From Candidatus Woesearchaeota archaeon (GTDB lineage Archaea; Nanobdellota; Nanobdellia; SCGC-AAA011-G17; GW2011-AR18), in NCBI GenBank assembly GCA_964497265.1, contig CAZCCK010000004.1, positions 606 through 64,605 of the forward strand: a stretch of 64,000 bases of DNA. Direction: 5' to 3'. The notes under the pieces are model-generated. The model had not been told where the DNA came from, ran no database searches, and worked only from the letters and a program-made list of their open reading frames with translations. This document shows, piece after piece, positions 663-58,964 of this stretch. Made by a program: the position numbers and the translations under genes. Each line of letters begins with the position of its first letter. Within the stretch, counting starts at the first letter, position 1.

Positions 663-693
663 TTTATATAGGTGTATTGATAAAGGAAGAGAA

Positions 694-1263: not shown

Positions 1264-1272
1264 GAGAAGCAT

Positions 1273-1932: not shown

Positions 1933-1933
1933 A

Positions 1934-2503: not shown

Positions 2504-2520
2504 TTCTAGACTTAACTGCT

Positions 2521-4501: not shown

Positions 4502-4503
4502 AA

Positions 4504-14073: not shown

Positions 14074-14096
14074 AAACGAAAAGATTTATTAATGAA

Positions 14097-32613: not shown

Positions 32614-33069
32614 ATGGCAAGAATGCATTCTAGGAAGAAAGGTCAGGCTGGTTCTAAAAGGCCTTCTAAGGAAAAAACTCAATCATGGTTAACGTATTCT
32701 GCTCAGGAAGTTGAGCAGTTAGTGTTAAAGCTGGGAAAGGCTGGAAATTCTTCAAGTAAAGTTGGAATTCTTTTAAGAGATGCGTATGGTATTCCAGATG
32801 TTGTGAAAGTGACTGGAAAGAAGATCATGCAGATTTTGAAAGAAGGAAAGCAAGCTCCAGAGTTGCCTGAGGATTTAATTCAATTGATTAAGAAGCAAAC
32901 GTTATTAATCAAGCATATTGAAAAGAATAAAACTGATATGGCGAGTAGAAGAGGTTTGCTCTTGACTGAATCTAAGATAAGACGTTTAACAAAGTATTAT
33001 CAGAGAAAAAAGGTTCTGCCCAAAGGATGGACTTATAGCGCTGAACAAGCGAAATTAATCGCTGGTTGA
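32614..33069 (+). CDS. rps15: 30S ribosomal protein S15 (uS15/S13e type)
   Basis: MARMHSRKKGQAGSKRP, LLRDAYGIPDV, PEDLIQLIKK, ESKIRRLTKYY, LPKGWTY. Confidence 0.85.
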   Translation: MARMHSRKKGQAGSKRPSKEKTQSWLTYSAQEVEQLVLKLGKAGNSSSKVGILLRDAYGIPDVVKVTGKKIMQILKEGKQAPELPEDLIQLIKKQTLLIKHIEKNKTDMASRRGLLLTESKIRRLTKYYQRKKVLPKGWTYSAEQAKLIAG

Positions 33070-35480: not shown

Positions 35481-35583
35481 GCCACCGTAGCTCAGACTGT
35501 TATCTAATTTTAGATGATGGGAGCAATGGTAGAGCAGCTGACTTGTAATCAGCAGGTCGGGAGTTCAAGTCTCCTCGGTGGCT
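35481..35583 (+). tRNA. tRNA-Thr (anticodon TGT) with a roughly 29-nt non-canonical intron in the D-loop (about 35498-35526)
   Basis: GCCACCG-TA-GCTC-AGAC[intron]TGGTA-GAGC-A-GCTGA-CTTGTAA-TCAGC-AGGTC-GGGAG-TTCAAGT-CTCCT-CGGTGGC-T. All stems pair. The intron contains the hairpin ATCTAA/TTAGAT. TATA-like box tatttaaa about 27 nt upstream. Confidence 0.7.
35570..35583 (+). repeat. tRNA-Thr 3' end (tctcctcggtggct), which is repeated directly at 36554-36567 and inverted at 35636-35649
   Basis: 13 of 14 nt are identical in the direct copy (cttcctcggtggct). The inverted copy is agccaccgaggaag. Confidence 0.5.
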
Positions 35584-36623: not shown

Positions 36624-37301
36624 ATGGAAGAGCGTTTAGAACAGCCTGAGCTTTCTTCAGAGATTGTGACTGTTGTTTTTGTTGATATTGTGGATTATAC
36701 GAATAAAACGAATCATTTGAACAGGCATTTGTTTATTGAATTGCATAATGCTTTTGATAGGATTTGTATTTCTTTATGTAAAAAGTATGGTGGTTCTGTG
36801 ATTAAAAAGATTGGTGATGCTTTTTTATTTGCTTTCAAATCCCCTACGAATGCTATTTTGTGTGGGATCCATTTGCAGAATAGTTTTGAGAGTTATAATA
36901 AAGAGCAGAAACCTCACGAACCGATTAAGATTAGAGTGGCAATTCATACCGGAGAAGTAATTTTAAGAGAGGGAGATATCTATGGTGATGCTGTGAATAT
37001 TGCTGCAAGGATTGAGGGTGTTGCTGGTCCGAATGAGATTGTGTTCAGTGGTGCTGTTTTTTTGGCGATGAATAAAAATGAGATTCCTTTTGTGCATGTT
37101 GGATTGTTTAAGTTAAAGGGGGTGAGTCAGCCTGTGAGGCTTTTTCGTGTGAAGGGTCATTATGATCGTATTTTGAGAAGGAAGAAGGTTTTAAGGAAAA
37201 GGTATAGGTTAGTTAAGCGTGTTATTATTACTATTATGGTCTTAAGTATTGTTGGAATAAGTGCTTATTTGATTTTGCCTTCTATTGGTTTTGTGTGGTA
37301 G
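36624..37301 (+). CDS. Class III adenylate/guanylate cyclase catalytic domain protein with a C-terminal TM anchor
   Basis: VTVVFVDIVDYT (metal-binding Asp), KKIGDAFLFAF, IRVAIHTGEV, YGDAVNIAARIE. Confidence 0.65.
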   Translation: MEERLEQPELSSEIVTVVFVDIVDYTNKTNHLNRHLFIELHNAFDRICISLCKKYGGSVIKKIGDAFLFAFKSPTNAILCGIHLQNSFESYNKEQKPHEPIKIRVAIHTGEVILREGDIYGDAVNIAARIEGVAGPNEIVFSGAVFLAMNKNEIPFVHVGLFKLKGVSQPVRLFRVKGHYDRILRRKKVLRKRYRLVKRVIITIMVLSIVGISAYLILPSIGFVW

Positions 37302-37560: not shown

Positions 37561-38170
37561 TTATTCAGAAACGGTTAAAGTATAAAGTTGTGATCTACTC
37601 AAGTTTGCGTTTGTTGCCGTAATATTAATGGTATAGTCTCCTGCTTGGTTGATATTAGCAACGGTAAGAGTAGAAGTAAAATCGGGGTTTGAAGCAGAAG
37701 GTATGAATGTGCAGTCTCCTGGACATCCTTCTGTGTTTAAGGTGACTTGCTCGCTTGTTCCTGAAAGAAGATTTGCGCTTACGTCTACTGAAGCGACGTT
37801 TTGTTCAAGTGAGATTGTATCCGAGCTCTGATTTAAAGTTAAATCGAAATCAAAGGGAGCTTGTGTTTCTTCTACAGTTAAAGTATATGTTGCAGATTTA
37901 CTGATGTTTTCATTGCTTGCGGTTAGATTGATCTGATACGTTCCAGGTGGAATCGTTGGATTTGGTTCTACTCTGAAAAGCGAAGTAAAGTTAGGGATTC
38001 CTAGAGGGGAGCTAAAGGAGCAGCTTGCGCCTGAGGGGCATCCTGAGAAGCTTAGGACAATGTTTTGGGTGATTCCTGAAAGCAAGGTAAGGAAGGTTGT
38101 GACGATTGAAGGTTGTTCTTCTGTTATTGTTTCGCTGCTTTGATTGACATCTAGATTAAAATCAAAAGCT
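37561..38170 (-). repeat. Two tandem protein-coding repeats of about 300 nt at the 3' end of the 974-aa surface protein gene
   Basis: Protein-level repeats covering aa 772-875 and 876-974, with conserved Cys pairs (GCPSGASCSF / GCPGDCTF). Confidence 0.5.
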
Positions 38171-40485
38171 GCAGGAGCGACGGTTGTGATTGGTTCGTCA
38201 AAGTGTACTGCCCAGTTGTAAAGTGGATTTCCGTATTGGCTCGGTGTGTTGTCGCTGTCTCTTAAGTTTCCACGTGCGGAAGTGCTGATAAAAGCACCTG
38301 GCAAGACATTCGCTGCTCTATATGCGTATTGGAAGCGTTGATTTGTTCCGTTTGGTATTTGATCTAAAGTAACCTGTACTGTGTCTGGTGAGATAATCTC
38401 CACTTTGGTGATGTTGATTTTTCTTCCTCCAGTATCATTATAAGTAAATCCGTAGTTTGTTTGGTATAAAACTAAGGCAGTATCAAAGACAAGTGGTGGT
38501 GAAGGTACATGGAATTTGGCTGTAATTATTTTTCCTTCTCTGGTTATTGTTTCTGGCATGAGTGGTTTCCAGTCTTCGTGGTTAAGTAAGACTTTTGTCA
38601 TAACTTTTCCATAGTATTCTCCTAGTTGTCGATAGCTTACGTTAATCAAGTGTACTGTGTCTTTGTAAGTAAGGAAGTAATTTGGTCCGACTAAGTAGAT
38701 TTTTCCTGGATTATGTTTTGCTGCTTCAAGTTGAGCGCGTGGTGAGGGGGGCATGCCTCCTTTGCTAAAGGAGCTGATTTGATCGATGAAGAAAGGAATG
38801 GTTTCATTTTGTCCGGTGATTGTGTTAATGTCTGTTTCATAGTCGTGTTGCCATTCAACAAGGTTTGCTTCATAGTCTGGGTTAAATCTATCATCTTCTC
38901 CGTGGAGAACAGCAATTGCTAAGAATCGATAATGTTGTTCCAAGTCTGATACACCCCAGCTTGCGTTTTTAACTTCGCTAAGACTATTTTGATAGGTTTG
39001 CGTTCCTTTTTTTATGACCGTATATTTTGATCCACCTAGCGCGCTTCGAGTAACGATCATGTTATAATCTTTGTTAGGGGTGGATCCTGTGATGAAGTTT
39101 CCCATTGCACTGTCAATACTTTCTGTAGTTGATTCTTTAAGCGGGATAAGTGGAAGATGAGGGTAGGTAGGGTAGTACCAAAGCATTTTGTTGTTATAAG
39201 GTTGGGTTGTGGTAAGTGCAGGAACTCCTTGTGCGCCTAAAGCTAAACTCTGTCCTGTAACAAGGATGTGATTGAAGTAGATTTTTTTGGGTGTAAGGGT
39301 GATTGTTTCTGATGCAGGTCCAGCGCCAATACTGTTTACTGCGCGTACTCGAAATTGGTAAGGTACATCATTATCCAGTCCTGTAATATTTGCGGTTTTG
39401 AGGGTGCTTACTGGATCGTTATATACCGTAAACTCTGCTCCATCTCTGCTGTATTCTATTTGATAGTCTCTTATAGGGCTTCCTCCTTGGGTGGTGGGAG
39501 TGGTCCAGAAGAGTTTAACTTTTTGATCAAAAACGCTTCCATTTAAGAAGAGTGGTTCGGAGGGGGTTAGTGCTAAAGTCGGATTTACTGAGAAGCTTTG
39601 TGGATCAGTAAAAGGTCCTAAAACTTTTCCGCCTACTTCTGTCCAACTATAAGTAAGATCGTTAGAGGGAATGCTTCCGTAAGTATCTAAAATTCTCCAG
39701 GTGAAATTAAAAATGTACTGATTTGGTTGAATTGTAACTGAGCTTTCATTTGCAAGAAGTTCAACATATTGATTACCATAAGAACTGTATTCCTTAAATC
39801 CTTTTGTAGGGGTCCATTGGAAGTATCCTCGAAAAGGTTTAGTTGGAGTATTTTTGAAATTAACAAGGAAACTCATTCCTTGGATGTTGCTAAGTTCTCC
39901 TTTATTGAGTACAAAGACCGCGCTTTGTTGGTCTTGTCCTGTTGAGACAAGATCTTGTTTTGCAAGGGTAAGACTGTTAAAGCTTGAATAAAGGGAAGGG
40001 GCTAAAACTGTTTGAAAACTTGTGTTTGTTTCTGTTAAGGCTACAGTTCTTCCGCTGCTTTCGTGCCAATAGTAAGAGAGAGGGTTAGTTGTATATGCTC
40101 CTTGGGTTGGGCTGATGGTCCAGGCAAAAGTGACGCTCGTCGTGTTTGTTTCGTTAGAATCTATTTTTTGAGAAAGTGATTTTACCGGTTCAATACTTGC
40201 GCTTCCATAGCCAGCTAGTTCTACAAATCCTGCGGAAGTCCAACGTAAATATCCTCTTGGAGAATTTTTATTGATCATTAATCTTATTTCATTAATCCCT
40301 GCAAGCTCTTGGGGAGTTGCGCATTGAATGGTAAGAGTGGCCTGTTGGGCATCATTGTCATCGGTTAAGATTTGGGGCTTTGATACAGATAGAGAAGTGT
40401 AGGTGCAGGTCGCTGAAACAATACTTATAACAAATAAAAATGAGAGCGATAAAAACAATAAAAATCGAAAGATTTTCAAATTCAT
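37561..40485 (-). CDS. Large (974 aa) secreted surface protein with a SASA/SGNH-like esterase core, a fibronectin type III domain and two C-terminal tandem repeats of about 100 aa
   Basis: Signal peptide. ILVTGQSLALG is like the GQSNM motif of sialate O-acetylesterase-like domains. FN3-like PIRDYQIEYSRDG...YQFRVRAVNSIG. C-terminal repeats FDFNLDVNQSS...YTLTVEE and FDFDLTLNQSS...YTLTVSE. Many NxS/T sequons. Confidence 0.5.
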   Translation of the reverse strand: MNLKIFRFLLFLSLSFLFVISIVSATCTYTSLSVSKPQILTDDNDAQQATLTIQCATPQELAGINEIRLMINKNSPRGYLRWTSAGFVELAGYGSASIEPVKSLSQKIDSNETNTTSVTFAWTISPTQGAYTTNPLSYYWHESSGRTVALTETNTSFQTVLAPSLYSSFNSLTLAKQDLVSTGQDQQSAVFVLNKGELSNIQGMSFLVNFKNTPTKPFRGYFQWTPTKGFKEYSSYGNQYVELLANESSVTIQPNQYIFNFTWRILDTYGSIPSNDLTYSWTEVGGKVLGPFTDPQSFSVNPTLALTPSEPLFLNGSVFDQKVKLFWTTPTTQGGSPIRDYQIEYSRDGAEFTVYNDPVSTLKTANITGLDNDVPYQFRVRAVNSIGAGPASETITLTPKKIYFNHILVTGQSLALGAQGVPALTTTQPYNNKMLWYYPTYPHLPLIPLKESTTESIDSAMGNFITGSTPNKDYNMIVTRSALGGSKYTVIKKGTQTYQNSLSEVKNASWGVSDLEQHYRFLAIAVLHGEDDRFNPDYEANLVEWQHDYETDINTITGQNETIPFFIDQISSFSKGGMPPSPRAQLEAAKHNPGKIYLVGPNYFLTYKDTVHLINVSYRQLGEYYGKVMTKVLLNHEDWKPLMPETITREGKIITAKFHVPSPPLVFDTALVLYQTNYGFTYNDTGGRKINITKVEIISPDTVQVTLDQIPNGTNQRFQYAYRAANVLPGAFISTSARGNLRDSDNTPSQYGNPLYNWAVHFDEPITTVAPAAFDFNLDVNQSSETITEEQPSIVTTFLTLLSGITQNIVLSFSGCPSGASCSFSSPLGIPNFTSLFRVEPNPTIPPGTYQINLTASNENISKSATYTLTVEETQAPFDFDLTLNQSSDTISLEQNVASVDVSANLLSGTSEQVTLNTEGCPGDCTFIPSASNPDFTSTLTVANINQAGDYTINITATNANLSRSQLYTLTVSE

Positions 40486-40626: not shown

Positions 40627-40718
40627 GGGCTCATGGTCTAGTGGCTATGACACAACCTTGACGTTCTCTTCGGAGATCAAAATGGTTGTAGTCGCAGGTT
40701 CGAGTCCTGCTGGGCCCA
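40627..40718 (+). tRNA. tRNA-Val (anticodon GAC) with a canonical 37/38 intron of about 19 nt (40664-40682)
   Basis: GGGCTCA-TG-GTCTAGTGGCTATGAC-A-CAACC-TTGACG[intron ttctcttcggagatcaaaa]T-GGTTG-TAGTC-GCAGG-TTCGAGT-CCTGC-TGGGCCC-A. The intron contains the hairpin TCTC-TTCG-GAGA. Confidence 0.7.
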
Positions 40719-40763: not shown

Positions 40764-41090
40764 ATGAAAAAATCTTTACTTGCCTTAAGCCTTGTGAGTT
40801 TGCTTCAAGCCTGCCATCCAGTAAAAAATCCAGTGGTTAATTTAGAATGTGGGAATACTGCCTATCAGAAAACAGAAAAAAGAGAAGGAGAGTCTGTTTT
40901 TGATTTTGCTACTCGTTTTTGCCAAGTTTTTGGTGCTGGAAATTACAGTAGGGGCGCGTTGTGTCATCCGATATTAGCGGAAATTAATTGTAATCTAGAA
41001 AATCAAGTGAGCTCTTTTAAGATTTATGAAAGGCCAAAAGAAGTTTGTTATACTCGTCCTGAAGAAGCGTGTTATTCACTTGTTTTTTGA
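40764..41090 (+). CDS. Small Cys-rich secreted/lipoprotein-like protein
   Basis: Signal with LLQAC. Six Cys in 108 aa. Confidence 0.4.
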   Translation: MKKSLLALSLVSLLQACHPVKNPVVNLECGNTAYQKTEKREGESVFDFATRFCQVFGAGNYSRGALCHPILAEINCNLENQVSSFKIYERPKEVCYTRPEEACYSLVF

Positions 41091-41148
41091 TAAATTTTAA
41101 AGCGTAATAATCGTTATATTTATATACCATTAAAGTGGTTTTTTACGA

Positions 41149-43299
41149 ATGGGGAAAAGGGGGCAGGTAACTGTTTTCGTAGTGTTAGGTTTAATTATTC
41201 TTATTCTTGCAGGTTCATTTCTTGCGTACCGTTATTTTGTTATAAATTCTAGTTTAGAGAGTACAAGACAAGAGTTGAGTAGAGTTCCGAGTCAGTTTCA
41301 GCCTGTTGCTGCTTATTTGGATGAGTGTACCCAAACTGTGGCGAGTGATGCATTGACTTTTGTAGGTTCAAGGGCGGGATATTTTACATTGCCGACAGAC
41401 CCGCTTCCTCCTTCTTCTATTAATCCTCTGCAAAGAAATTTAGAAGTTCTTCCAAATACGGATTTGAAAGTTCCTTTGTGGTTTAGAGAATCTAGTAATG
41501 GTATTCAAGAAGTGAATGTTCCTTCAAAAGCAGATGTGGAGAAAAATCTAGCGTTGTATGTAACAACTCACTTTCCAGAGTGTCTTGACAATTTATCTTC
41601 TTTTCAAGAAGAAGGGTATCAAATAATTTCTTCAGCCACTCAAGTAAATTCAAAAGTAACTGTAACTAAAGATGCCGTGGATGTTGTTGTTTCCTTTCCG
41701 ATGCAAGTTTCTTTCAAAGGAGCTAATTTTAAGTTGGATGGTTCTCTTGCTCATGTAGAGACGCAGTTCGGAGATTTATACAATTCCGCGGTCGAGATGT
41801 TAACAACTGAAAATCAAGGATTTTTCTTAGAAAATAAAACATTAGATATGCTTGTTGCGTATGATAAGGAGGTTCCGTATTCTGGTTCTGATCTTTCTTG
41901 TTCAGAAACAGTTTGGTCAAAAACAGAAGTAATTAAAAGATTCAAAGCGATTCTTTTTGAAAATACTGCTGCGATTCATGTGGTCGGTACAGATTTTAGT
42001 TTAGATAATGAAGGTCAAAAATATTTATTGTTTGATGCTTTAAAGAGTAAGCGGTCTGATGTTTCTATAAACTTAAGATATAATCCTTCGTGGCCTACGC
42101 TTGTGGATATTAGTCCTTCGCAAGGGGATGTTTTAAGATCAGATCCTATAACCAAGAATACGGGCGGATTATTAACAACGATTTTATCTTCTTACTTTTG
42201 TTTGAACGATCATCATTTTATTTATACGATAAAATATCCTGTTTTAATTTCGTTGACAGATAAGAATGGTTTTGTGTTCCAGTATGCTACAGAGGTAATT
42301 ATTGATAGAAATCTTGCCAGAGAAAATAGGATTGTTCCCTTAGATATTCCAGATACTCGTTCTTTATTATGCGAGAATGCGGCTAGTCCTCTAACGATCA
42401 ATACCTATTCTTTGGATCAGAATGAAGAACTTGTTCCTTTGAGTGGTGCTGATGTTTCGTTTAAGTGTTTCCCTGACACGTGTCCTTTGAAGGCTGTTGG
42501 GCAGGCGGCAAATAAGATGCAAGTTCTTGCTCCTCCTTGTGTGAATGGGGTTGTAGAAGTTTCCAAAAAGAATTTTTTCAATGGTAAATCTGTTGTATCT
42601 ACGAATACAGCTGAAGTACAAAATCTCAACATTGTTCTTGAGCCTTTGTATGAGAAGCATGTTCAAGTAAAAGTAATTGATAAGAAAACTGGTGAAATAC
42701 GTGATCCGTTTAGTTCAGAATTAATCTCTTTTAGTTTCAAGCATCAGAACGCGCGGTATAATGAATACTTCACGTATCAGAGCGAAGGTGCCTCTTGTGA
42801 GTTAGAGGATACGTGTGGTCCTGGTTTAGAATGTAAGAGGGGCGCATGCGTGTATCCTAGTTGTGAATCTAAAGAAGATTGTTCTCTAAATCAAGAGTGT
42901 GTCTCTAAAAAATGCGCTCCGATTAATACGATTCATTTGCTTGCGGGTGATTATGCTGTCGAGTCTTTCGTTTCTCGTACAAGTACGTGGCCGATTCAAA
43001 CGCAAAAGAAAACGGTGCAAAACTGCGTACAGACCACTGCAGATGGAGTGTTGGGTCTTTTCTTCACAAAAGAAAAATGTTTCACGACAGAGATTCCTTC
43101 CGTTGATTTTAAGAACGCGCTTGTGGGTGGAGGGAATTTCAATGTTACATTTGAGCGTAGTGCTTTAGCTTCAAAGAACGTTTTAACGTTGTATGTTCTT
43201 GCTGATGCCACTCCTGCGGATCTAGAAGGTTTTGCTAATATTCAGACAGATTTAAGTATCAATAAAGATAATCCGAACTTTAGGTATCCTCAGCTATGA
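41149..43299 (+). CDS. Pilin-like (class III signal) large secreted protein with a C-terminal Cys-rich EGF-like module
   Basis: N-terminus MGKRGQVTVFVVLGLIILILAGSFLAY (KRG then Q at +1, followed by a hydrophobic stretch). CELEDTCGPGLECKRGACVYPSCESKEDCSLNQECVSKKCAP. The stop overlaps the next start (ATGA). Confidence 0.5.
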   Translation: MGKRGQVTVFVVLGLIILILAGSFLAYRYFVINSSLESTRQELSRVPSQFQPVAAYLDECTQTVASDALTFVGSRAGYFTLPTDPLPPSSINPLQRNLEVLPNTDLKVPLWFRESSNGIQEVNVPSKADVEKNLALYVTTHFPECLDNLSSFQEEGYQIISSATQVNSKVTVTKDAVDVVVSFPMQVSFKGANFKLDGSLAHVETQFGDLYNSAVEMLTTENQGFFLENKTLDMLVAYDKEVPYSGSDLSCSETVWSKTEVIKRFKAILFENTAAIHVVGTDFSLDNEGQKYLLFDALKSKRSDVSINLRYNPSWPTLVDISPSQGDVLRSDPITKNTGGLLTTILSSYFCLNDHHFIYTIKYPVLISLTDKNGFVFQYATEVIIDRNLARENRIVPLDIPDTRSLLCENAASPLTINTYSLDQNEELVPLSGADVSFKCFPDTCPLKAVGQAANKMQVLAPPCVNGVVEVSKKNFFNGKSVVSTNTAEVQNLNIVLEPLYEKHVQVKVIDKKTGEIRDPFSSELISFSFKHQNARYNEYFTYQSEGASCELEDTCGPGLECKRGACVYPSCESKEDCSLNQECVSKKCAPINTIHLLAGDYAVESFVSRTSTWPIQTQKKTVQNCVQTTADGVLGLFFTKEKCFTTEIPSVDFKNALVGGGNFNVTFERSALASKNVLTLYVLADATPADLEGFANIQTDLSINKDNPNFRYPQL

Positions 43300-46200
43300 A
43301 AAAAAGTAGTGTGATTGCAGTGTTTTGTATGGTTTTGATAGTGACTCTTCCTTTGGTTGTTGCTCAAAGCCAATATTCTTCCTCTTCACAAAGTCTTCTT
43401 CCAGGATATCAACCTAATGAGGTTGCTTTTTTTCAGCAGCCTTCTTCTTTGGCTGATTTGCTTGGTGGTGCTTTTAGTCAGGCTCTTGGAACTGAGCAAG
43501 ATCTTGGAGAGGCGTTAGTTATTTACGCTGCGACTCCTGATCCTCCTTTTATTCGTGCTTCTGCTTTGGAGCAGCAGCCTTTGCCGATTTACATTCCTTT
43601 GAGAGCAACTGATTTTGGTTCGATTTTAGGAAAGGTTTCTGAGGATCCTTCGCAGCGTGATCCTTTTACGGGTTTTACTTCTTTGCCTCCTGTAAAAAGA
43701 ATGGTTGTGAAGTTAAATAGGACAAATCCTTTTGTGAACACAATAAAGTATATTCCTCCTGAGTCTGGATTTTCGAAAGATAATATGGGTTATCTTGTTG
43801 TTGTTTTAAACAGGTTAAGAAATGAAACGAGTTTACCTACTGCTCGTAGTCAGCAGACAAGTGTGTTTAATAATTCTCTTCCGCAGGATGTTGTGCCTAA
43901 TTTAGGCGCAGATACTCCTGTGATTGACTTGGATTTGACTGCTGAGATTTATTTGAATTTGCAAGAGAGTTCTTTGACAAATTTAGGTCAGAGGGATCTT
44001 GTTTTAAAACCAGAATCAGAAAATGATTTTTTGAAAAAATCTTCTAAAGAGGAGAATGCGTTTTATAATGATCGTGCGTATGTACGCGCTTCTGCGATTG
44101 GTCAAGATAGGGTTACGTTAAATGTTTATAATAAGGATTTGTTGCCTTTGACCTTTTTTTCTGCGCCAAATGCTCCTGCTGGATCAAAGGTTGCTTCTGT
44201 CTCCTTAACCACCAATCAAGTATCTAGTCCTGTAAGACTAGGTATTAGTTCCAATCCGTTGCAAGATAGTGTTGTGTTTAAATTAAACAATGTTGTGCTT
44301 CCGGCAAATAGTGTTTCTTATCAATTAAGTACGTCTTCTCAAACATTTGAAAGGGAAGCGAATGAAGGTTCCTTCTTGTATCCTGGTTCTCATTGGCAGA
44401 TTATAAGTGTTAAAAAAAATGAAAGAGACGCGACTGCTGAGCAAGTGAGAAAGCAAGGTTTTACTCTAGATAGTGCTTCGCGTAAAAAGGTAGAGCAAGC
44501 TCAGCCGGGTGATATTAAGATTGTTTCTTATCAAGTATTTTTGAAAAATAGCGCTACCGGTGAGTCTCGTTCTTTGGAAAGAGAGGTGGTTACAGGTAGT
44601 ACGTTTAATTTTGATTTTCCTCCTCTTGATGACGCGACTGCGTTAGCGTTAGAAGAGATGTATTGTCCTTCAGCGTTACAAAAGACTGCCAATGAAGATT
44701 ATGGGTGTGCTGCTGTAAGAAGCTTTAAGCAAGTGATTAATGATTACCCCGCGAGCGCTGAGGCGAAAAGTGCGTATGGGCAATTAGTTGATGTGTACGA
44801 TAATGATCTAATTAGTAATCCTGCTTGTAAGGTTATTGGTAAAGATCAAGTTTTAGATGAGGATAAATGTAGTTTGTTTTTGGATGATATGTTTTCGCTT
44901 GCGTATTATTATGCGTCGAAAGTGAAGGTTTCTAATCCTGTTTTATTGCAAAAGTTAAGAGATGGATTTGGGGGAAAAGGTGGTTTTGAGTTTTTGGAAG
45001 ATGAAGGTATTGGTTTTCAAGTAAAAAATGTAAAAATTGCGACAAATGATGATAAGGGCAAGTTTTCTCTTTCTGTGAATAGAAATCCTCTGGTTATGTT
45101 GCAAGTGGGTAATACTATTCCAAATTTGGTGGGAACGACAACGAAAGGAGATTTGTTTAAGTTTATTGTGCGTCAGATTAATCAGAATTCTGTTTTGGTG
45201 GAGAAAAAGAAAGTTGCGGATATTAATCTGCCTGTTGATGAAAAGAGTGTTTCTTTTGGTTCTTTAACTTTAATTTCTGGTCAGAATAATGTTTTATTAA
45301 AAAAAGGTGAAGAAAATCAGCAAGATGAAAATGTTTTATTAGATATTGGTTCTATTGAAGTAAATACGAGGGCTTCTATCTCTATTATTCCTGGTGCGAA
45401 TCGAGGATTAGCTCGTTCTTCGTTTAGAGTGCATATTCCTATTGAGCCTCGTCCTTTTCCAAATCTTGGTGAAACGTTGAAAGGTCATATTAATGCGACA
45501 AGAAAATTGGTTGCGGATCTTGATTCTGTAATTACAAAGATGGATACAGTGGTAAAGTCTTGGAAGAAATTATGTATTATTACCTTTGCTTTTGTAACCT
45601 TGAAAAGTTCGTTTTTAGGTGGAACAACAAGAACGCTCGCAAGAAGAGGTGTTGCTCAAGTCTACAAAAAGGATTGTGCTACTCAAGTAGCTGCGACTAA
45701 ATTTAGAAGTGTTGATGATTGTCTTGCAAGCAGAACAGATGAGTTAAGTAAGGATGTTGATGCGAATCAAAAAGCGATTGAGGCTGTACAGAGTCAGCTT
45801 AGCAAAGAGACCCCTGATCATCTGAAGATGTGCGGAGATGTTCCTTTCCAAGAGGCGCGTTTACTTGGAGCAACAATTCAAGATTGCCAAGAGTATTTAC
45901 GTTTGAAAGCTTTAAAATCTGAGCAAACGAGTGATTTGTTAAAAATAGAAGCAGACAAAAGTTTAACTGATTTAAAGTTTGAGCAGAAGAAAGATCTTAT
46001 TAGTCAAGCTTCGAAAGCTTATGAAGATAATAAAGATAAGTTGCCTTTCAAAGGAGATGACGCTGCTCAAAAAGGTATGCAGTATTACGCGAATTTGTTT
46101 GAGCAGGAGCAGCAAAAGAAGACGCCGATTCGTGAAGATGTGATTAATGTGCCTTCTTTGATTCCAAATGGAAAAGATACTGCTATTGCTATTCTAAATC

Positions 46201-48578
46201 CGGTCTTTGATCCTCAGACAAAGCAAATAAATCCTGATTCTATTAAGCCTACTGAGCTTAAACAGATTACTCAGTTGCAGTTTAAGATTTATGATGAAGG
46301 CGCTGATGAGGTTGTTAAGCAGGCAACAGTAAATTGTCTGCAAAATGTGAATTCGCAAGTCGCAGCTAAAAATACTCCTGCATACACGTTGCCTTGTGTT
46401 CAGAAGAGGTTGAACGCGTTAAATGTTCCTGATCCTTCTGGTTTGTATGTTAACCCAGTTTTTATTGGTGCTGCGAATCAGATAAGTGCGGATGCTGCTG
46501 TTGCGAGTGCTTTAAGTAATTATAAGGATCAGTTGTTAGTTGATCAAGGAAGTCTAGCAAAGAAAGGCGCTTTACCAAAGGCAAGTTTGTTTAAAGTTTA
46601 TTCTTCTCCGATTGTTCCTCGTGGAAACGAATTGAAGAGTTTAGATTATGCTTATTTACAAGAAGGCGCAACTCCAGGCGGTCTTGTCGCGCAATATAAT
46701 CCTGAGTCTGGAAAAACATTCTGTTATCCTACTGGTAAAAACGGAGAGTATATTTTAGTCTTGGAAAGATATCCTGAGAATGGAAGAGTGAGAACGTTTA
46801 GAGCGATGAATGTTGGGTTGAATGGGGTGATGGAGTGTGGTGGCTCTGGTGATGATGTTCTTGCGGATAAGGGAGACGAGTCTACGCTAAACTTACCTGA
46901 AAATGCGAAGTTAAAGAATGATTACCTTTCTATTGTTGAGCGTGCTCCTACATGCAAGAAAGATGGGGATCAAGCTGGTTTTGTTTTTAATACTAAGGGA
47001 AATAAGATTCCTGTTGTTTGTAGTATGAAGCAGTCTTTATTGAACGCTGCGTTGAGTAATCCTAAGTGTGTGGATGTAATGGAGCCTGAAGATTGTAAGA
47101 TTTTGTTTAATGTGTGTGATCCTGTGATGTGCCCTGCTTCTAGGTGTAATTTAGGTGGAAGGTATCAAGTTCCGGATGTCATCCAGTCTGGTATTGTTGG
47201 TTCTTTATTCTTGTGCGCTCCAAATATTAAGCAGGGTGTTGTTGTTCCAGTATGTTTGACTGGTGTGCTTGCCGGTTTAAAGAATATTAAGAGTTTGCTT
47301 GAAAGTTATGCTGATTGTTTGGAAGCGAATTTGAAAGATGGAAAGAATGTCGGCTTCTGCGATTATATTAGGAGTGTTGGTGTGTGTGAGTTAGTTTGGA
47401 GAGAGTCAACAAGTTTACTTGGAATTAAAGGTGGAGTGATTGATTACTTGTCGGATAAAGTCTTTTCTGAGCCTGAAGGTGGAGCAGAGTATTTAACGTT
47501 CCAGAATTCGTTGCAAAACGTTGGTTCTTCGTTTAATTATTTTACGACTGAATATTCGAATACGTACGTTGCCGCACTGAAAGGTTCTTCTACTGCTGAG
47601 GTTGGTTCTCAGATTTGTAGGCTTGGAGTGTATGGCAGGTTGCCTACTGCTGGTGAAGTGTTAGATAAATTATCTGAGCCTGAAGATCCCCCTCAATTCT
47701 TTGCGTTGTTAGATGAAGCTCCGTATACGCAGACTGTTGGCGAGTCTCCTCTTGCGCTAAATGTTCCTGCGAGTGCTAAAGAGCTTTCATTGTATAAAGT
47801 GTTTTATCATATCTATGCTGGAACTGGCTATGCGCAAGATCAAGCTGTTTTTGCAGAGCCGTTGAATCCTGCGACAAATCAGCCAAATAAAGCTGTAACG
47901 TACTCTGTTGTTTTAAGAAATAGGGAAGCGGGGTTACCAGATGTGTACATGACTTCGGAAGGAGAGTTTTTACAGAATCAAGCGACGATTGCGCGCGGTC
48001 AGTACGCTCAAAAAACAGTACAAAAGGTGGCGGTTCCTGGTTATAATGAGGTGTGTATTGTTTTGAATGGTAAGGAAGCGTGTGGTTTTGGAAAAGTAAG
48101 TTCTTCTTTTTCTTTGAATTATTTGAATGATCGTCTTGTTGAGTCTGATAGTAAGAAAAAGATTACTTCTAGCGAGCAGTGTGTTCCAAATGTTCCGACA
48201 AGTGGGGTTGCTTTAGGTAGTTTAGCTACCCCTGAGAAGTATGGTGTTACCAGTACGGGAATAAGTAGGGTTTGTAATCCTACGCCTCCGACAGCTGATC
48301 TTTCTAGATGGGCAGATGTAGGTTCTTGTGGAAAGGATAAGAATGGGATTGATCGTGGAACATGTTGGCTTGATAAAAATTCTGTGCGCGTTCAAGATCT
48401 TGAGGCAAAGAAAGAGATTAATGTTGCTTTGAAACAATCTGGTTTAGCTGAAAGTGAAAAATCAAAAGTTCTTTCTAGTGAGGACAGTGTAAAGAAGTTG
48501 TCTGAATTAAATACAAAGAGAGATAGCATTCTTGCTCAGTTGAGAGCTGCAGTGCAAAGATTGGCAGGTGCTCTATGA
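43296..48578 (+). CDS. Giant (1760 aa) secreted protein of unknown function
   Basis: Signal peptide MKKSSVIAVFCMVLIVTLPLVVAQS. Continuous ORF with no recognisable catalytic motif. Cys-rich segment near aa 1230-1330. Start and stop overlap the neighbouring genes. Confidence 0.55.
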   Translation: MKKSSVIAVFCMVLIVTLPLVVAQSQYSSSSQSLLPGYQPNEVAFFQQPSSLADLLGGAFSQALGTEQDLGEALVIYAATPDPPFIRASALEQQPLPIYIPLRATDFGSILGKVSEDPSQRDPFTGFTSLPPVKRMVVKLNRTNPFVNTIKYIPPESGFSKDNMGYLVVVLNRLRNETSLPTARSQQTSVFNNSLPQDVVPNLGADTPVIDLDLTAEIYLNLQESSLTNLGQRDLVLKPESENDFLKKSSKEENAFYNDRAYVRASAIGQDRVTLNVYNKDLLPLTFFSAPNAPAGSKVASVSLTTNQVSSPVRLGISSNPLQDSVVFKLNNVVLPANSVSYQLSTSSQTFEREANEGSFLYPGSHWQIISVKKNERDATAEQVRKQGFTLDSASRKKVEQAQPGDIKIVSYQVFLKNSATGESRSLEREVVTGSTFNFDFPPLDDATALALEEMYCPSALQKTANEDYGCAAVRSFKQVINDYPASAEAKSAYGQLVDVYDNDLISNPACKVIGKDQVLDEDKCSLFLDDMFSLAYYYASKVKVSNPVLLQKLRDGFGGKGGFEFLEDEGIGFQVKNVKIATNDDKGKFSLSVNRNPLVMLQVGNTIPNLVGTTTKGDLFKFIVRQINQNSVLVEKKKVADINLPVDEKSVSFGSLTLISGQNNVLLKKGEENQQDENVLLDIGSIEVNTRASISIIPGANRGLARSSFRVHIPIEPRPFPNLGETLKGHINATRKLVADLDSVITKMDTVVKSWKKLCIITFAFVTLKSSFLGGTTRTLARRGVAQVYKKDCATQVAATKFRSVDDCLASRTDELSKDVDANQKAIEAVQSQLSKETPDHLKMCGDVPFQEARLLGATIQDCQEYLRLKALKSEQTSDLLKIEADKSLTDLKFEQKKDLISQASKAYEDNKDKLPFKGDDAAQKGMQYYANLFEQEQQKKTPIREDVINVPSLIPNGKDTAIAILNPVFDPQTKQINPDSIKPTELKQITQLQFKIYDEGADEVVKQATVNCLQNVNSQVAAKNTPAYTLPCVQKRLNALNVPDPSGLYVNPVFIGAANQISADAAVASALSNYKDQLLVDQGSLAKKGALPKASLFKVYSSPIVPRGNELKSLDYAYLQEGATPGGLVAQYNPESGKTFCYPTGKNGEYILVLERYPENGRVRTFRAMNVGLNGVMECGGSGDDVLADKGDESTLNLPENAKLKNDYLSIVERAPTCKKDGDQAGFVFNTKGNKIPVVCSMKQSLLNAALSNPKCVDVMEPEDCKILFNVCDPVMCPASRCNLGGRYQVPDVIQSGIVGSLFLCAPNIKQGVVVPVCLTGVLAGLKNIKSLLESYADCLEANLKDGKNVGFCDYIRSVGVCELVWRESTSLLGIKGGVIDYLSDKVFSEPEGGAEYLTFQNSLQNVGSSFNYFTTEYSNTYVAALKGSSTAEVGSQICRLGVYGRLPTAGEVLDKLSEPEDPPQFFALLDEAPYTQTVGESPLALNVPASAKELSLYKVFYHIYAGTGYAQDQAVFAEPLNPATNQPNKAVTYSVVLRNREAGLPDVYMTSEGEFLQNQATIARGQYAQKTVQKVAVPGYNEVCIVLNGKEACGFGKVSSSFSLNYLNDRLVESDSKKKITSSEQCVPNVPTSGVALGSLATPEKYGVTSTGISRVCNPTPPTADLSRWADVGSCGKDKNGIDRGTCWLDKNSVRVQDLEAKKEINVALKQSGLAESEKSKVLSSEDSVKKLSELNTKRDSILAQLRAAVQRLAGAL

Positions 48579-51500
48579 AGAAAGCAGTTTTACCTTTAAT
48601 ATTCCTTCTTTTTATTTCTCTTGTAGTTGCTCAGTCTGATATTTGTGATAAACAGAATGTGAAGTGTTTAGAGAAAGATCCTGCGAGTGTTACATTAATT
48701 AATGATTTTCGTTCTTTAGAGTATGGTCAACTTGCTACGTTTTCTAGTGATAATGATGTTTCTGCTAAAGCGTTGTACGATCAAGCTTCTGGTTTTAAGG
48801 ACATTGCTCTTTTGAAAAGGCAGTATGAAGGTGTTGTTCACTCTAATAAGAAAGTAAGCCAAGTATTAAACGCTTTTTCTGAGAATGTTTTAAGCGCTCA
48901 TAAAGATTCTTCAGGTAATATAAGATTTGATTTTTTTGTCTCTTCTGCTGATGCTGCAACGTATGTCCTTAATTGGAATAATCAGGTGGTTGCGCAGGCG
49001 ACAGAGAACGATCTTCAAGGGAACAGTATTGTTTTTCTAGTAAGTGCTGACGAATTGCAAAAGGCAGGTGTAACAAGTCTCGATATTTCTGAATTTTCTA
49101 AGTTTAGTGTTTCAAAGGGAGATGAGCAAGGAAAGGTGTTTGCTCGTTATGGGGTGAGTAGTGTTTCTGTTCCTTCTCCTTTAATTTCTGCGGCTACGGT
49201 GGATCGTATTCCTGCAGATTCAATAAGTATTGGCTACGATCCTGCCAAACTTGCTCTTGAGATAAGCATTGCTCCTAATCAAGTCGGTTCAACAGCTCAT
49301 TTGTTAATTGATGATCAGGATATTCAGCTTAATGGTGGGATTGGTGTTGATGGGAAGTTTAAGGCAAAGGTGGACCTTTCCTATCCGAATCAGATAAAAT
49401 TAAAAGATGCGTTAATGAAAGATAGTTCTTTACTTTTCAGTGCGAAAATTAAGACAACTGACGCAACATTTACTCCTTCCGAGATTTATGTTACTGCTCC
49501 TAGACTTTTAGAATCGTCTGGAGTGATTCCTGTTGTTATTGCTCCTACTCCGCCTACAGCGCCTGAAAAGAAAGTGCAAGCTGAGCAAGTAGGGATTATT
49601 GATTTGACAAATACTGAAGAGTTAAAGCAGCAAGCAATTACAGCTTGTGCTCAAGAAGCTTTGGGAATTGAGTTAAGTAAACCCAATTCGAAACAGGTGG
49701 AAGTTATTCAGCAAAGAATGACGTCTGTTCAACCAGGTGCTTCTGATACGTTGGTTAATTTAGTTCGATCTGCTACAAATGATCCTTCAGAGCAGGTAAC
49801 TTTAGCAGGTATTATGTCCAAAGAGTCGCTAGCGAAGGTCGATATTGGTGACAGTTCTGCTGGAGCGCGTGGAGTGATGCAGTTTATTTCTCTTTCTGCT
49901 GTTGAGATGAAAGTTCCCTATAAGGATTCGTATGGCGATCGTTGTGCGAACAAAGCTGCTGCAAAAGTTACTGGACAGTGCGCATTATGTCTTCCTTCTG
50001 GATGTAATAATGGTGATGCTCGAAAGCAGCCGGATATAGAGATTGCTTCAGCGAATGTATTATTACAACAAAAGAAAAAAAGTTTACAAAAATGTATTAA
50101 AGATAGTACTCAAGGAAAGAATATTGTTGTTCCTCCAGAGGATTTATTTAAGTTTACCATTGCTGCTTACAATAGGGGTGAAGGAAATATTTGTCATGAT
50201 ATTGAACGGGTAATTAGTCAAGGTTCTCAAAAAGATGCTTCAAAAGTAACCTGGGAAGATGTTGCGGCCTTGCAATTATTTCCAAGTCAGACACGTTGTT
50301 ATGTTCCTGCAGTAATCTTTTTTATGTCTGCGCATAGAAATTTATTTAATGTAGAAACTATTGGTGTTTCAAAAGAAACTGTATCCACTCAGTTAGGATG
50401 TGCTGATTGTGGTTTAGATAACCAATGCAGTGCAGATGATTGTCGTCAAAGAGGGTGTATTGTTGTTTCTAAGATTATTGGTTCTTCTTGTGCAGATAAG
50501 CCTGCGGAGGTGGTTACTCCAACACCAAATCAAGATCCTTGTAATGCTTGTGGAAAAGAGTGGACTGCTTTTTGTAATAAAAAGAATTGTGATGAAATTA
50601 AGAGTTTGTTAGAATCTCAAGGAATCGGATCTTGCACATATACGCCTGGAGTAGTTGATAGTATTTTTGGTGGTTCTTGTTCTTCAGCTGTAACAGCAAA
50701 TCCTTTAGTGGGTGGTTGTACGAATGTGGACCGATCGAAAAAGATCTTTCCGCTCAGAAGTGTGCAGGTAACTTCTTGTTATGGAAAACGGATTTTAAAG
50801 GGAAGTGAGCAATGGCATCCGGGTATTGATTTTAATGCGCCTATAGGAACAGATGTTTTGGCGGTTGATGAGGGCACGGTTTCAAAGATTTGTGTGGGTA
50901 GTGCTAAGACTGATTGTGGTGGTTACGGGTACTATGTGAGAATCAAGCACCCTGATGGAAGTATTAGTCAATATAATCATCTTTCGCAGTCCTCAGTTTC
51001 TAACGGAGAAAATGTCAAACAAGGACAGGTTATTGCAAAAAGTGGAAATACGGGCGATGTTACAGGTCCCCATTTACATTTCAATATTTATTGTAGTGAA
51101 CAGGATCTAAATGCGGGTCAGGATTATAAGTTAGATCCATTTTATTATTTACCTGACATTCCTTTAGCGAAAATTAATCAAAATGCGTGTAGGCTTTCTC
51201 CGATCTTTAATCAGATTTACGCGGTTAATCCTCAATCTCCGCAAGTTTTAGCAGCGCAGCCTCTTGCAAATGAACCAAGTGATGACGCTCATCCTGCTGA
51301 TTTGAATGTAGAAATTCATCCTCAAGAAGTATATTTAGTGTGGTCTGAAGGAGAGTTCGAACCTCCAACGCTCGTGCCACAGTTAACAAGTAAGCCGGTT
51401 GTAGGTACAAGATATTTAGCTGATGCTTCTGATGGTTTTTATGTTGAGCAAGTTTCAAAAGACGGAATTTCGCTTTCGTTGTTTTCTACAGATGAGCAGG

Positions 51501-52219
51501 GTGTGGTCAATCAGGTACAGCCTTTAGCTTTTGCTAATCTGGTAAAAGCTTCTTTGAATGGTGCAGAATATGATTTTGTTCCTGTTGAGGAAAATAAGTT
51601 GTATGTGCAGCCAGAGGTAAAGCATGTGTTTGTTGCGAGTACTATTGAGCCTGGTTTTCCAGTGAGAGTAGTTGATCTAACTCAGAATTCAAAGATTACT
51701 GGCGCTGTTATTACTGAGCATTCTGAAAAAGATATTCCGGAAGTATTTGTATTTAAGCATGGAGAATCAAGAGAGGTAAATGCGATTAATTATGTTGTGT
51801 TGCATCATACTGGCACGTTTAGTGCTCAAGATACGATGAAAGTGCTCTCAAAGAGAGGGCTTTCTGTGCATTATGTTTTGGATAAGGATGGCGCTTTATA
51901 CCGACTTGTTCCAGAAGAGGAAATCGCGTGGCATGCAGCTGGAAGAAATGCTGATTCTATTGGTATTGAGATTGTGAATACGGGTAATGCTGAGGATAAG
52001 TATACGCAAGAGCAGTATAGGGTGATTAGTGTTCTTTTAGATTATTGGGCAAAGACGTATCCGAATTTTAAGAAAGATAATGAGCATGTGTTAGCGCATT
52101 ATGAGGTTTCTAGTCAGAAGTGGGATCCTTCTCCTAATTTTGATTGGAGTCAGATTGGGTTAGAAGGGCACGCTTTGGCGAGTTCTGATCAAGTTCCAAA
52201 AGGGGCAGGGTATGCATAA
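48575..52219 (+). CDS. Secreted multi-domain peptidoglycan hydrolase: SLT lytic transglycosylase, M23 (LytM) endopeptidase and Amidase_2/PGRP N-acetylmuramoyl-L-alanine amidase
   Basis: Signal peptide. SLT motif SKESLAKVDIGDSSAGARGVMQF (about 49800). M23 motifs HPGIDFNAPIGTDVLAVDEGTV, GYGYYVRIKHPDGSISQYNHLS and TGDVTGPHLHFNIY (about 50800-51160). Amidase_2 INYVVLHHTG...GLSVHYVLDKDGALYRLVPEEEIAWHAAGRNADSIGIEIVNTG...DPSPNFDW (about 51700-52150). Confidence 0.75.
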   Translation: MKKAVLPLIFLLFISLVVAQSDICDKQNVKCLEKDPASVTLINDFRSLEYGQLATFSSDNDVSAKALYDQASGFKDIALLKRQYEGVVHSNKKVSQVLNAFSENVLSAHKDSSGNIRFDFFVSSADAATYVLNWNNQVVAQATENDLQGNSIVFLVSADELQKAGVTSLDISEFSKFSVSKGDEQGKVFARYGVSSVSVPSPLISAATVDRIPADSISIGYDPAKLALEISIAPNQVGSTAHLLIDDQDIQLNGGIGVDGKFKAKVDLSYPNQIKLKDALMKDSSLLFSAKIKTTDATFTPSEIYVTAPRLLESSGVIPVVIAPTPPTAPEKKVQAEQVGIIDLTNTEELKQQAITACAQEALGIELSKPNSKQVEVIQQRMTSVQPGASDTLVNLVRSATNDPSEQVTLAGIMSKESLAKVDIGDSSAGARGVMQFISLSAVEMKVPYKDSYGDRCANKAAAKVTGQCALCLPSGCNNGDARKQPDIEIASANVLLQQKKKSLQKCIKDSTQGKNIVVPPEDLFKFTIAAYNRGEGNICHDIERVISQGSQKDASKVTWEDVAALQLFPSQTRCYVPAVIFFMSAHRNLFNVETIGVSKETVSTQLGCADCGLDNQCSADDCRQRGCIVVSKIIGSSCADKPAEVVTPTPNQDPCNACGKEWTAFCNKKNCDEIKSLLESQGIGSCTYTPGVVDSIFGGSCSSAVTANPLVGGCTNVDRSKKIFPLRSVQVTSCYGKRILKGSEQWHPGIDFNAPIGTDVLAVDEGTVSKICVGSAKTDCGGYGYYVRIKHPDGSISQYNHLSQSSVSNGENVKQGQVIAKSGNTGDVTGPHLHFNIYCSEQDLNAGQDYKLDPFYYLPDIPLAKINQNACRLSPIFNQIYAVNPQSPQVLAAQPLANEPSDDAHPADLNVEIHPQEVYLVWSEGEFEPPTLVPQLTSKPVVGTRYLADASDGFYVEQVSKDGISLSLFSTDEQGVVNQVQPLAFANLVKASLNGAEYDFVPVEENKLYVQPEVKHVFVASTIEPGFPVRVVDLTQNSKITGAVITEHSEKDIPEVFVFKHGESREVNAINYVVLHHTGTFSAQDTMKVLSKRGLSVHYVLDKDGALYRLVPEEEIAWHAAGRNADSIGIEIVNTGNAEDKYTQEQYRVISVLLDYWAKTYPNFKKDNEHVLAHYEVSSQKWDPSPNFDWSQIGLEGHALASSDQVPKGAGYA

Positions 52220-52940
52220 GAATTTTATTCTAGATCTTATTTTTACGGTTTTATTGATTTCTCTTCTTATTTTTGTAAGAACAGAATCTAAAAGTTATTT
52301 TCAGCAAGTTCAGGGCTTTTCAGAAGATATTGCACATATTGAGAATGGGCTGTCTTCGAATGAGTTTACAGAGCAAGATACGTTAAACGCAGACCAAACG
52401 TTAACAAGTTTGAATAAGATCTTAACAAAATCTATTTTTTTAAATGTTCTTCTTCTACCTTTAGTTATTTTTTTGTTGTGGGTTGTCTTTCAAGGTCTGA
52501 TTTGGAGGTCTTTAACAAAGATGAGCTTAAGCAAATTTGCTTTAATTTCAATTATTCCAGTAGTTCTTTTCTTTTCTTTAATTTTATATTTTTTAGAATA
52601 TGTTTCTTTTGTTTTTTTTAAAGATACAACTGCTTCTTTAGTGGTTCTAATCTTAATGGTTCTCTTATTATTCATTGTCAATTATTTTTATTTAATCCTT
52701 GTTTTAAAACCAAATCTAAAAATGAAAGAAATTTTTAAAATAGCTAAGACTAAATTCTCTAAATTAATTGTTCCTTATTTAATTTTAAGTCTAACTGCCT
52801 TTATCTATTTAATTTTAGGCGTTTTAATTTTTATTTTTAGTTATGTTGGTACTTCTTTCATCATTCCGGCTTTACTTTTAGCGCTTCTTTTAATTCTCTT
52901 GCAGTACGAAAGAAAGTGGTTGCTTAAGCTAGCTTTTTAA
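52212..52940 (+). CDS. Polytopic membrane protein (about 6 TM) ending the giant-protein operon
   Basis: The start overlaps the previous stop. Mostly hydrophobic helices. Confidence 0.45.
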   Translation: MHKNFILDLIFTVLLISLLIFVRTESKSYFQQVQGFSEDIAHIENGLSSNEFTEQDTLNADQTLTSLNKILTKSIFLNVLLLPLVIFLLWVVFQGLIWRSLTKMSLSKFALISIIPVVLFFSLILYFLEYVSFVFFKDTTASLVVLILMVLLLFIVNYFYLILVLKPNLKMKEIFKIAKTKFSKLIVPYLILSLTAFIYLILGVLIFIFSYVGTSFIIPALLLALLLILLQYERKWLLKLAF

Positions 52941-58807: not shown

Positions 58808-58964
58808 TGCGGGGAACAGGATTCGAACCTGCGAAGGCACTAAGCCATCAGGTATCTTCAGTGATGGTTCGTAAGAACTCGCCACAGCCGCCTAAGCTAA
58901 ATCTTTTAGTTCTTTATACAAAGAAGCTAAAATCTGATCCATTTGGCCACTCTGGAATCCCCGC
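58808..58964 (-). tRNA. Class-II-like tRNA (Leu/Ser type D-arm) with about 70 nt of intronic insertion; the anticodon is unresolved
   Basis: Minus-strand 5' end GCGGGGA-TT-CCA-GAGTGGCCAAA-TGG-A and 3' end GCAGG-TTCGAAT-CCTGT-TCCCCGC-A pair perfectly as acceptor/T-arm. The internal 105 nt contains extra hairpins. A CTTAGGC loop (Leu-UAG-like) is present but could not be phased by eye. Confidence 0.45.

Follow-up and report, generated by a model that had tools for sequence, protein, structure and literature searches.

Several proteins encoded on a 64,000-nucleotide stretch of a Candidatus Woesearchaeota archaeon genome (assembly GCA_964497265.1, contig CAZCCK010000004.1, positions 606 to 64,605; here called the window) begin with a short basic segment ending in K/R-G-Q. 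We wondered if these starts are class III (prepilin-type) signals, cut between Gly(-1) and Gln(+1) by a peptidase of the A24 family, and which proteins carry them. A first-pass annotation of the window had read them in this way for three proteins, starting at positions 10550, 11751 and 41149, and all three N-terminal strings that it quoted are present in the sequence. Class III features were taken as described in PMC4371748 and applied to the N-termini. On balance, we favour the view that the start of the 41149 gene encodes a KG↓Q class III signal (the arrow marks the bond that is cut, or predicted to be cut) and that the start of the 10550 gene, which we place at 10568, probably does so too, with the mechanism proposed below.

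The start of the 41149 protein

The gene at 41149 to 43299 on the plus strand (gene A) encodes a surface protein of 716 aa. Positions 41149 to 41260 read MGKRG↓QVTVFVVLGLIILILAGSFLAY-RYF. The basic leader MGKRG (41149 to 41163) ends in Gly5, after which the cut is predicted from the sequence and from family conservation, and the codon CAG at 41164 to 41166 specifies Gln +1, the predicted new N-terminus. The hydrophobic H-domain follows directly (V7 to Y27, 41167 to 41229); its 21 residues occupy positions +2 to +22 and would be kept on the mature protein. The first charge after Gln comes at +23, and the best 18-residue hydrophobic window has a grand average of hydropathy (GRAVY) of 2.93. As far as the sequence can tell, every feature named in PMC4371748 is found here: a basic N-terminus, a charged residue at -2, Gly at -1 and a site placed directly before the 21-residue H-domain.

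Relatives of the 41149 protein form 39 protein clusters, without a Pfam or NCBIfam match, and every named member is annotated as hypothetical. The family is specific to Woesearchaeota/Nanoarchaeia (DPANN), where it is encoded in 124 metagenome-assembled, species-level genomes. One relative lies on a contig binned as Gammaproteobacteria (L079), probably a binning error. Identity among homologs ranges from 26 to 60%, the column mean being 47%, and M1, K3, G5 and Q6 are among the few nearly invariant columns. In 60 distinct N-termini, K(-3) is found in 58, K/R(-2) in 59 and Q(+1) in 59; G(-1) is present in all 60, partly by construction, as [KRE]G served to anchor the N-termini. A leader of exactly five residues is found in 52 of 66 members. 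Along the helix, positions drift among I, V, L, A and F, with the exception of Gly at +9 (58/60), so that the consensus reads Q-V-T-x-F-I-I-L-G, with T at +3, F at +5 and G at +9.

Codon use at the motif was compared across loci. Glycine is specified by GGG in 28 cases, GGT in 19, GGA in 13 and GGC in 5, and glutamine by CAG in 45 and CAA in 20. Since the K, R, G and Q codons vary synonymously, what is selected is the peptide, not an RNA element; this free variation rules out an RNA-level signal in the purine-rich start region as the source of KRGQ. A TATA-like box of the TTTATATA type lies about 25-30 nt upstream of the gene A ATG in nearly every locus (41110 to 41125 in the window). Its position supports the annotated start and implies that gene A is transcribed from a promoter of its own, with little or no 5' leader.

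Because K/R(-2), G(-1) and Q(+1) are conserved family-wide at the protein level, a class III signal with Gln at +1 appears to be the best reading of the 41149 N-terminus, and the case for it is strong. A different reading, possible if doubtful in our estimate, is that the segment is an uncleaved type II (N-in, C-out) signal anchor, in which KRGQ would be a cytoplasmic stub that serves topology, recognition by the signal recognition particle or insertase, or contact with a partner. The helix is indeed of transmembrane (TM) length. In the AlphaFold2 (AF2) model, with a mean predicted local distance difference test score (pLDDT) of 82, it spans residues 5-43, so that it extends well past the H-domain, and is followed by an alpha/beta domain and beta-sandwich domains for which Foldseek returned only generic Ig-like adhesin or S-layer matches. 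However, the positive-inside rule covers the K/R residues and accounts neither for a Gly-Gln pair that is invariant in 59-60 of 60 N-termini nor for a fixed five-residue leader, both kept down to 26% identity. Moreover, the site equals the KG↓Q that is cleaved in Methanococcus pilins.

K/R-G-Q starts in the window

The window is archaeal, with a GC content of 36.7% and with genes for a Pelota/eRF1-type factor, eIF2-alpha, TFIIB and ribosomal proteins S15, S3Ae and S8e. Four of its 59 proteins have [KR]GQ within the first 15 residues, as compared with 0.18 expected when each N-terminus is shuffled, and none of 5000 shuffles reached four. At interior positions of the window proteins the tripeptide occurs only three times in about 17,000. 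N-terminal [KR]GQ thus exceeds chance.

One of the four carriers is ribosomal protein S15 (32614 to 33069), which starts MARMHSRKKGQAGSK and has KKGQ near its N-terminus. It is cytoplasmic and lacks a hydrophobic segment. Since S15 is a carrier without a helix, the tripeptide alone is not diagnostic; it is informative when combined with a helix and with conservation, and S15 is a built-in false positive for tripeptide-only searches. That S15 carries KKGQ without any secretion role also speaks for the uncleaved anchor.

A charged residue at -2 and G at -1 are present in all three proposed proteins (R4-G5 in 41149, K5-G6 in 10568 and R6-G7 in 11751). The hydrophobic helix said to follow K/R-G-Q in each of them is clear in 41149, borderline in 10568, where E at +4 and K at +6 intervene, and wanting in 11751, whose best hydrophobic window does not begin before +20. 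No overlooked small pilin genes came to light when the whole window was scanned in six frames.

The 10568 and 11751 proteins

The open reading frame (ORF) at 10550 has 398 aa. Its likely true start is the ATG at 10568 (MRFKKG↓QVSEGKF...), as in the public annotation (P0040, 392 aa), and a TATA-like box lies upstream of it. The resulting 392-aa surface protein (10568 to 11746, plus strand) has the leader MRFKKG↓Q, a short acidic spacer including E(+4) and K(+6), a helix and three beta jelly-roll domains. The AF2 model (pLDDT 86.5) places a disordered linker between helix and jelly rolls, and Foldseek matches to BcsB and to a beta-galactosidase C-terminal domain, both carbohydrate-binding-module-like, suggest that the modelled protein binds glycans at the surface.

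The 30 closest database homologs keep [KR][KR][GA] and a short acidic spacer ahead of the helix, and their +1 residue is Q in 14, E in 6, A in 3, D in 2, V in 1 and K in 1. A wider sample was drawn from 78 metagenomic loci, retrieved with an alignment of a 13-sequence subset, the alignment of all 30 being too divergent. There, [KR][GA]↓Q runs straight into a small/hydrophobic helix in about 85% of 75 homologs, e.g. KRG↓QAAGAAVLLAIIAGL. The window's subclade thus looks like a relaxed variant of a canonical N-terminal module. As for 41149, conservation of K/R(-2), G(-1) and Q(+1) across the family is the ground on which we read the 10568 start as probably a class III signal, and the protein as a probable second substrate.

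The 454-aa membrane protein encoded at 11751 to 13115 (plus strand) is another matter. Between the basic N-terminus and the helix its homologs have 14 to about 100 variable polar or charged residues, and GQ occurs in three of ten, the three closest relatives only. A24 enzymes cleave at the surface of the membrane, immediately ahead of the hydrophobic domain. Because such a long variable spacer misfits this cutting site, we regard the 11751 protein as having a cytoplasmic tail, in whose variable sequence KRGQ lies, followed by a signal anchor. It does not carry a class III signal, and its proposed place among pilin-like proteins has to be given up. Being exactly an anchored protein with a basic KG-rich tail, from the same window, it also lends some weight to the uncleaved anchor as a reading of 41149.

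Three proteins encoded within 13153 to 15068 and 40764 to 41090 have lipobox-like leaders (...LLAAC, ...LLLAAC and ...LLQAC), and two of them sit in an operon after 10550 and 11751. These leaders suggest lipoprotein-type anchoring in this DPANN archaeon.

The A24 peptidase

The sole A24 enzyme of the window is an aspartyl (prepilin-type) peptidase of the PibD/FlaK form, encoded on the minus strand. Its ORF (6953 to 7942) matches Pfam PF01478 at 49.6 bits (cut-off 26.5) and, weakly, an archaeal C-terminal domain in Pfam. It aligns to the FlaK structure 3S0X with E 8e-8, with D69 (ITD) and D131 (GGGD) of the ORF opposite the catalytic motifs; the corresponding codons are at 7736-7738 and 7550-7552. 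GGGD is retained in seven peptidase homologs. Because homologs of 285-295 aa start at the position equivalent to Met49, the gene is probably 6953 to 7798 and its product a protein of 281 aa with about six hydrophobic segments. Both Asp motifs reported in the first-pass annotation are therefore confirmed, and the start moves, most likely, from 7942 to 7798.

The only NCBIfam match is FlaK_Arch (NF040695), at 49.6 bits far under the equivalog cut-off of 330. The protein reads as a FlaK-related enzyme and not as a FlaK orthologue, and its 5-6 TM segments assign it to the PibD/FlaK form and not to EppA; Makarova et al. (PMC4858521) distinguish a PibD/FlaK form with five TM segments from an EppA form with nine (arCOG02300). 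In Methanococcus maripaludis, EppA depends on Gln at +1 and FlaK does not accept it; PibD enzymes are permissive (PMC4371748). It is plausible that the window peptidase accepts KG↓Q. A second A24 peptidase may be encoded elsewhere in the genome, beyond the window. The EppA/FlaK-like pilin processing that had been supposed thus finds a match in the predicted sites, which are of the KG↓Q[VLI] kind cleaved in Methanococcus, but not in the enzyme as far as EppA is concerned.

The operon of gene A and the giant proteins

Gene A is the first of four genes (41149 to 52940, plus strand) whose stops and starts overlap at A-B, B-C and C-D. Gene B (43296 to 48578; 4-nt overlap with gene A) encodes a giant secreted protein of 1760 aa. 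Gene C (48575 to 52219) encodes a protein of 1214 aa with the Pfam domains M23 peptidase (1.3e-27), Amidase_2 (4e-27) and SLT (2e-4), a peptidoglycan hydrolase. Gene D (52212 to 52940), the conserved last gene, encodes a membrane-anchored protein of 242 aa without a Pfam match and has homologs directly downstream in 15 loci. The A-B pair occurs in distant relatives with the same overlap and in the same ribosomal-protein neighbourhood. Homology to gene B extends over its full length in 60 ORFs, and its relatives carry SLT. In four loci (L007, L009, L013 and L016) B bears the hydrolase domains of C as a C-terminal fusion, which argues for a functional link between the genes.

The gene B family is known as fam00969, giant murein-like lytic transglycosylases of up to 3000 aa from Woesearchaeota/Pacearchaeota (Castelle et al. 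2021, PMC8204110), for which binding or breakdown of bacterial cell walls has been proposed. The literature searched on these giant proteins yielded no mention of gene A, of the A-B-C-D operon or of a class III-type signal, and literature searches found no published work joining Woesearchaeota to class III signals or type IV pili.

The two partners differ systematically in their starts: gene A always has KRGQ and a TM-length helix, gene B always a Sec leader. Homologs of gene B have classical Sec leaders in 58 of 58 cases and KGQ in none. The leaders of the 1760-, 1214- and 974-aa proteins of the window consist of an MKK-type or similar n-region, a short h-region and a site of the small-x-small type. 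Their leaders mark the giant proteins as ordinary Sec substrates, outside class III. The idea that giant proteins are displayed as pilin-like, N-terminally processed subunits instead of being handled by Sec and signal peptidase I is hence not supported, and the proteins that do start with KGQ are not giant (398, 454 and 716 aa, as first delimited), the largest window proteins being those with Sec-type leaders.

We consider it highly improbable that 41149 itself has an ordinary Sec signal cut by signal peptidase I after the hydrophobic region. A basic n-region and a hydrophobic region are common to all Sec signals, and LAGS inside the 41149 helix could be a weak small-x-small site. Nevertheless, the 21-residue stretch continues as a helix, no small-x-small site is conserved in the family, and the true Sec leaders of the same operon look different, having a short h-region with VAQ, VSA or VFA behind it.

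The 974-aa protein, a further large surface protein, is encoded just upstream of the operon on the minus strand (37561 to 40485); it has a Sec signal, fibronectin type III and a weak SASA sialate O-acetylesterase match.

Related loci

A related woesearchaeal locus (L074, 67 to 5332) contains nine small genes (67-373 aa) that resemble a minor-pilin operon. Most have [KR][GA]↓X-helix leaders, four of them with Gln at +1. One product (2141 to 3262, MVKG↓QITTLKF...) has an M23 peptidase domain (33 bits, cut-off 28.7). The cluster immediately precedes the rpS15/rpS3Ae/A-B module, and the locus sequence ends before any assembly ATPase could show. To judge from these leaders, the lineage uses the KG↓Q-type signal on pilin-sized proteins and at least once on a peptidoglycan hydrolase. 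The recurrence of the same G↓Q junction in the pilin-sized L074 genes and in the 10550 family, which is unrelated to 41149, speaks against an uncleaved anchor.

In a census of about 2.3 Mb of related DNA, further KGQ proteins were found only in this cluster and as one 162-aa protein in another locus (L051). Outside the two families the motif is present in 5 of 1,838 distinct ORFs. Among N-terminal [KR][GA]X-helix cases, X is Gln in 5 of 50, compared with 3.2% Gln in protein interiors (P = 0.02), four of the five coming from one locus; an earlier, narrower census had given 6/23 against 2.6%.

Proposed mechanism and its alternatives

Directly established are the motif, its protein-level conservation in two unrelated families, an intact peptidase and the operon structure, and the mechanism we favour is built on these. 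Sec would insert the protein with the short basic leader MGKRG staying in the cytoplasm, as in the pathway summarised in PMC4371748. The peptidase encoded at 6953 to 7798 would then cut the Gly(-1)-Gln(+1) bond on the cytoplasmic side of the membrane. The retained helix of about 21 residues would hold the large ectodomain at the surface, either membrane-anchored or in a short pilus- or bindosome-like assembly. As gene A is translationally coupled to gene B and shares one operon with M23, amidase and SLT domains, its product would most likely be a membrane-proximal anchor or partner that keeps a complex attacking bacterial cell walls, with the enzymes of B and C, on the archaeal surface.

A number of observations weigh against this account. 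Cleavage, the identity of the cutting enzyme and the anchoring role are all what we infer from sequence, and the candidate enzyme is of the PibD/FlaK form, of which FlaK of M. maripaludis rejects Gln at +1. The peptidase adjoins 10550 homologs in only seven loci, all of one clade, in which synteny extends to HIT and Pelota; a functional linkage by adjacency was rejected as housekeeping synteny within a single clade. The QxSxExxxL motif is absent from the 41149-family consensus. When the three proteins and their N-termini alone were run against Pfam and NCBIfam, no class III, pilin or DUF361 model came up, the only hit being a non-significant Tad N-terminal model (E = 1.5), and the Class_IIIsignal (DUF361) and Pilin_N models did not match the N-termini even at E <= 10. 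In the window's own 10550 subclade, position +1 is variable (Q, E, A, D, V) and charges follow it. Beyond the two families, the motif is seldom found and just modestly enriched. Finally, no pilus ATPase or platform gene is present among the scanned genes of the 64-kb window or in annotated homologous loci, and the large, multi-domain ectodomains of 41149 and 10568 returned no type IV pilin fold among their Foldseek matches. The silence of the Pfam class III models and the lack of pilus machinery nearby both count in favour of an uncleaved anchor.

The last two findings also bear on another alternative, which we hold to be quite unlikely: that the KGQ proteins are true type IV filament (TFF) subunits, large minor pilins or adhesins whose TFF ATPase and platform are encoded elsewhere in the genome. 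It is through class III signals that proteins gain access to such filaments, DPANN archaea are reported to have Epd-type 'system 1' TFF loci (bioRxiv 10.64898/2026.04.22.720090), the minor-pilin-like operon with the same leaders adjoins the A-B module, and FlaFind recognises known minor pilins of 250-550 aa that have Ig-like folds (PMC4858521). Set against this are the lack of an ATPase or platform gene in the window and the annotated loci, the lack of a pilin fold among the Foldseek matches, a length of 716 aa, far above known filament subunit sizes, and the class III signals of Sulfolobus proteins that form no filaments (PMC2910488). Display of the 41149 and 10568 proteins as pilin-like subunits of a filament is not supported to that extent by their sequences.

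A bolder proposal, which we think unlikely, is that A-B-C-D forms an undescribed surface machine made via the type IV filament pathway, with the KRGQ protein as its pilin-like base or stalk. If this were true, the device would attach to bacterial walls and open them locally, an apparatus for episymbiosis or predation of an archaeon on bacteria, and the L074 M23 peptidase with its VKG↓Q leader would be a second, smaller version of it.

For the KG↓Q class III signal that we favour, the consequences are more modest. Published hints of a life on bacteria for some Woesearchaeota/Pacearchaeota come mainly from the giant lytic-transglycosylase proteins, and giant protein B always travels with an upstream partner that bears a conserved prepilin-type signal. 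With processing predicted, the KG↓Q signal would extend past Methanococcus-type pilins to large non-pilin ectodomains, and its occurrence alongside a PibD/FlaK-type peptidase, the only type seen in this lineage, bears on the determinants of +1 specificity. Both the signal type and the giant protein were known before; new are the putative substrate families, 41149 with a strong case and 10550 as a probable one, which makes this an extension and not a new principle. The predicted site G5↓Q6, the candidate enzyme (6953 to 7798) and the four-gene operon offer concrete handles.

Other features of the window

Five consecutive secreted or membrane proteins without a Pfam match are encoded at 12 to 4137, and two of them share VGVG(A/M)xPAK right behind the leader. 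A MASE1 histidine kinase and an adjacent receiver-like protein are encoded at 4130 to 6240 on the minus strand, and a class III adenylate/guanylate cyclase domain protein at 36624 to 37301; this is more signalling capacity than expected for a reduced DPANN genome. Three tRNA genes were found (35523-35583, 40627-40718 and, on the minus strand, 58808-58964). The 92-nt and 157-nt matches, much over plain tRNA length, probably carry introns.

Comparison with known systems

Of the known systems, the EppA-processed Epd pilins (DUF361) have an identical site pattern. Experimentally cleaved M. maripaludis pilins EpdB-E have KG↓Q[VLI] sites, those of EpdB and EpdC being KG↓QV (PMC4371748). The window proteins share with them the K/R-G-Q-V/I/L site, the short basic leader and the position of the site directly before the hydrophobic domain. 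In contrast to the Epd pilins, they lack the S(+3), E(+5), L(+9) signature and are not recognised by the Pfam model, and they are not small proteins but multi-domain ectodomains of 392-716 aa. The Epd system further differs in its 9-TM EppA, as opposed to the 5-6-TM PibD/FlaK form in the window, and in its gene cluster, no Epd-type counterpart of which surrounds the window genes.

The peptidase resembles PibD/FlaK (MEROPS A24B; 3S0X) in its A24 domain, in the two catalytic Asp residues, the second of them in GxGD, and in about six hydrophobic segments. It departs from FlaK in its score, 49.6 bits as against an NCBIfam equivalog cut-off of 330. Among the operon's products, that of gene B falls into the fam00969 group of giant proteins, and so does the SLT domain of the gene C product.

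The third point of reference is the bindosome of Sulfolobus (PibD, Bas). Class III signals there also occur on non-filament proteins, namely sugar-binding proteins, proteases and redox proteins (PMC2910488). The sugar-binding proteins are cut by the broad-range PibD and held at the surface by their retained hydrophobic N-terminus, and their genes lie beside those of functional partners (PMC2910488; bioRxiv 10.64898/2026.04.22.720090). The window proteins differ in that they have no solute-binding-protein (SBP) fold and no ATP-binding cassette (ABC) transporter as neighbour, genes A-D and the 10550 operon being free of SBP or ABC Pfam matches. Gln at +1 is no Sulfolobus feature either, the sites there being KA↓I, KG↓I and RA↓L, and the partners in the window are instead a giant lytic-transglycosylase-family protein and peptidoglycan hydrolases. 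What both have in common is large non-pilin ectodomains behind a class III signal, processing and retention being predicted for those of the window, and in this respect the Sulfolobus bindosome seems the best analogy for how the window proteins would work.

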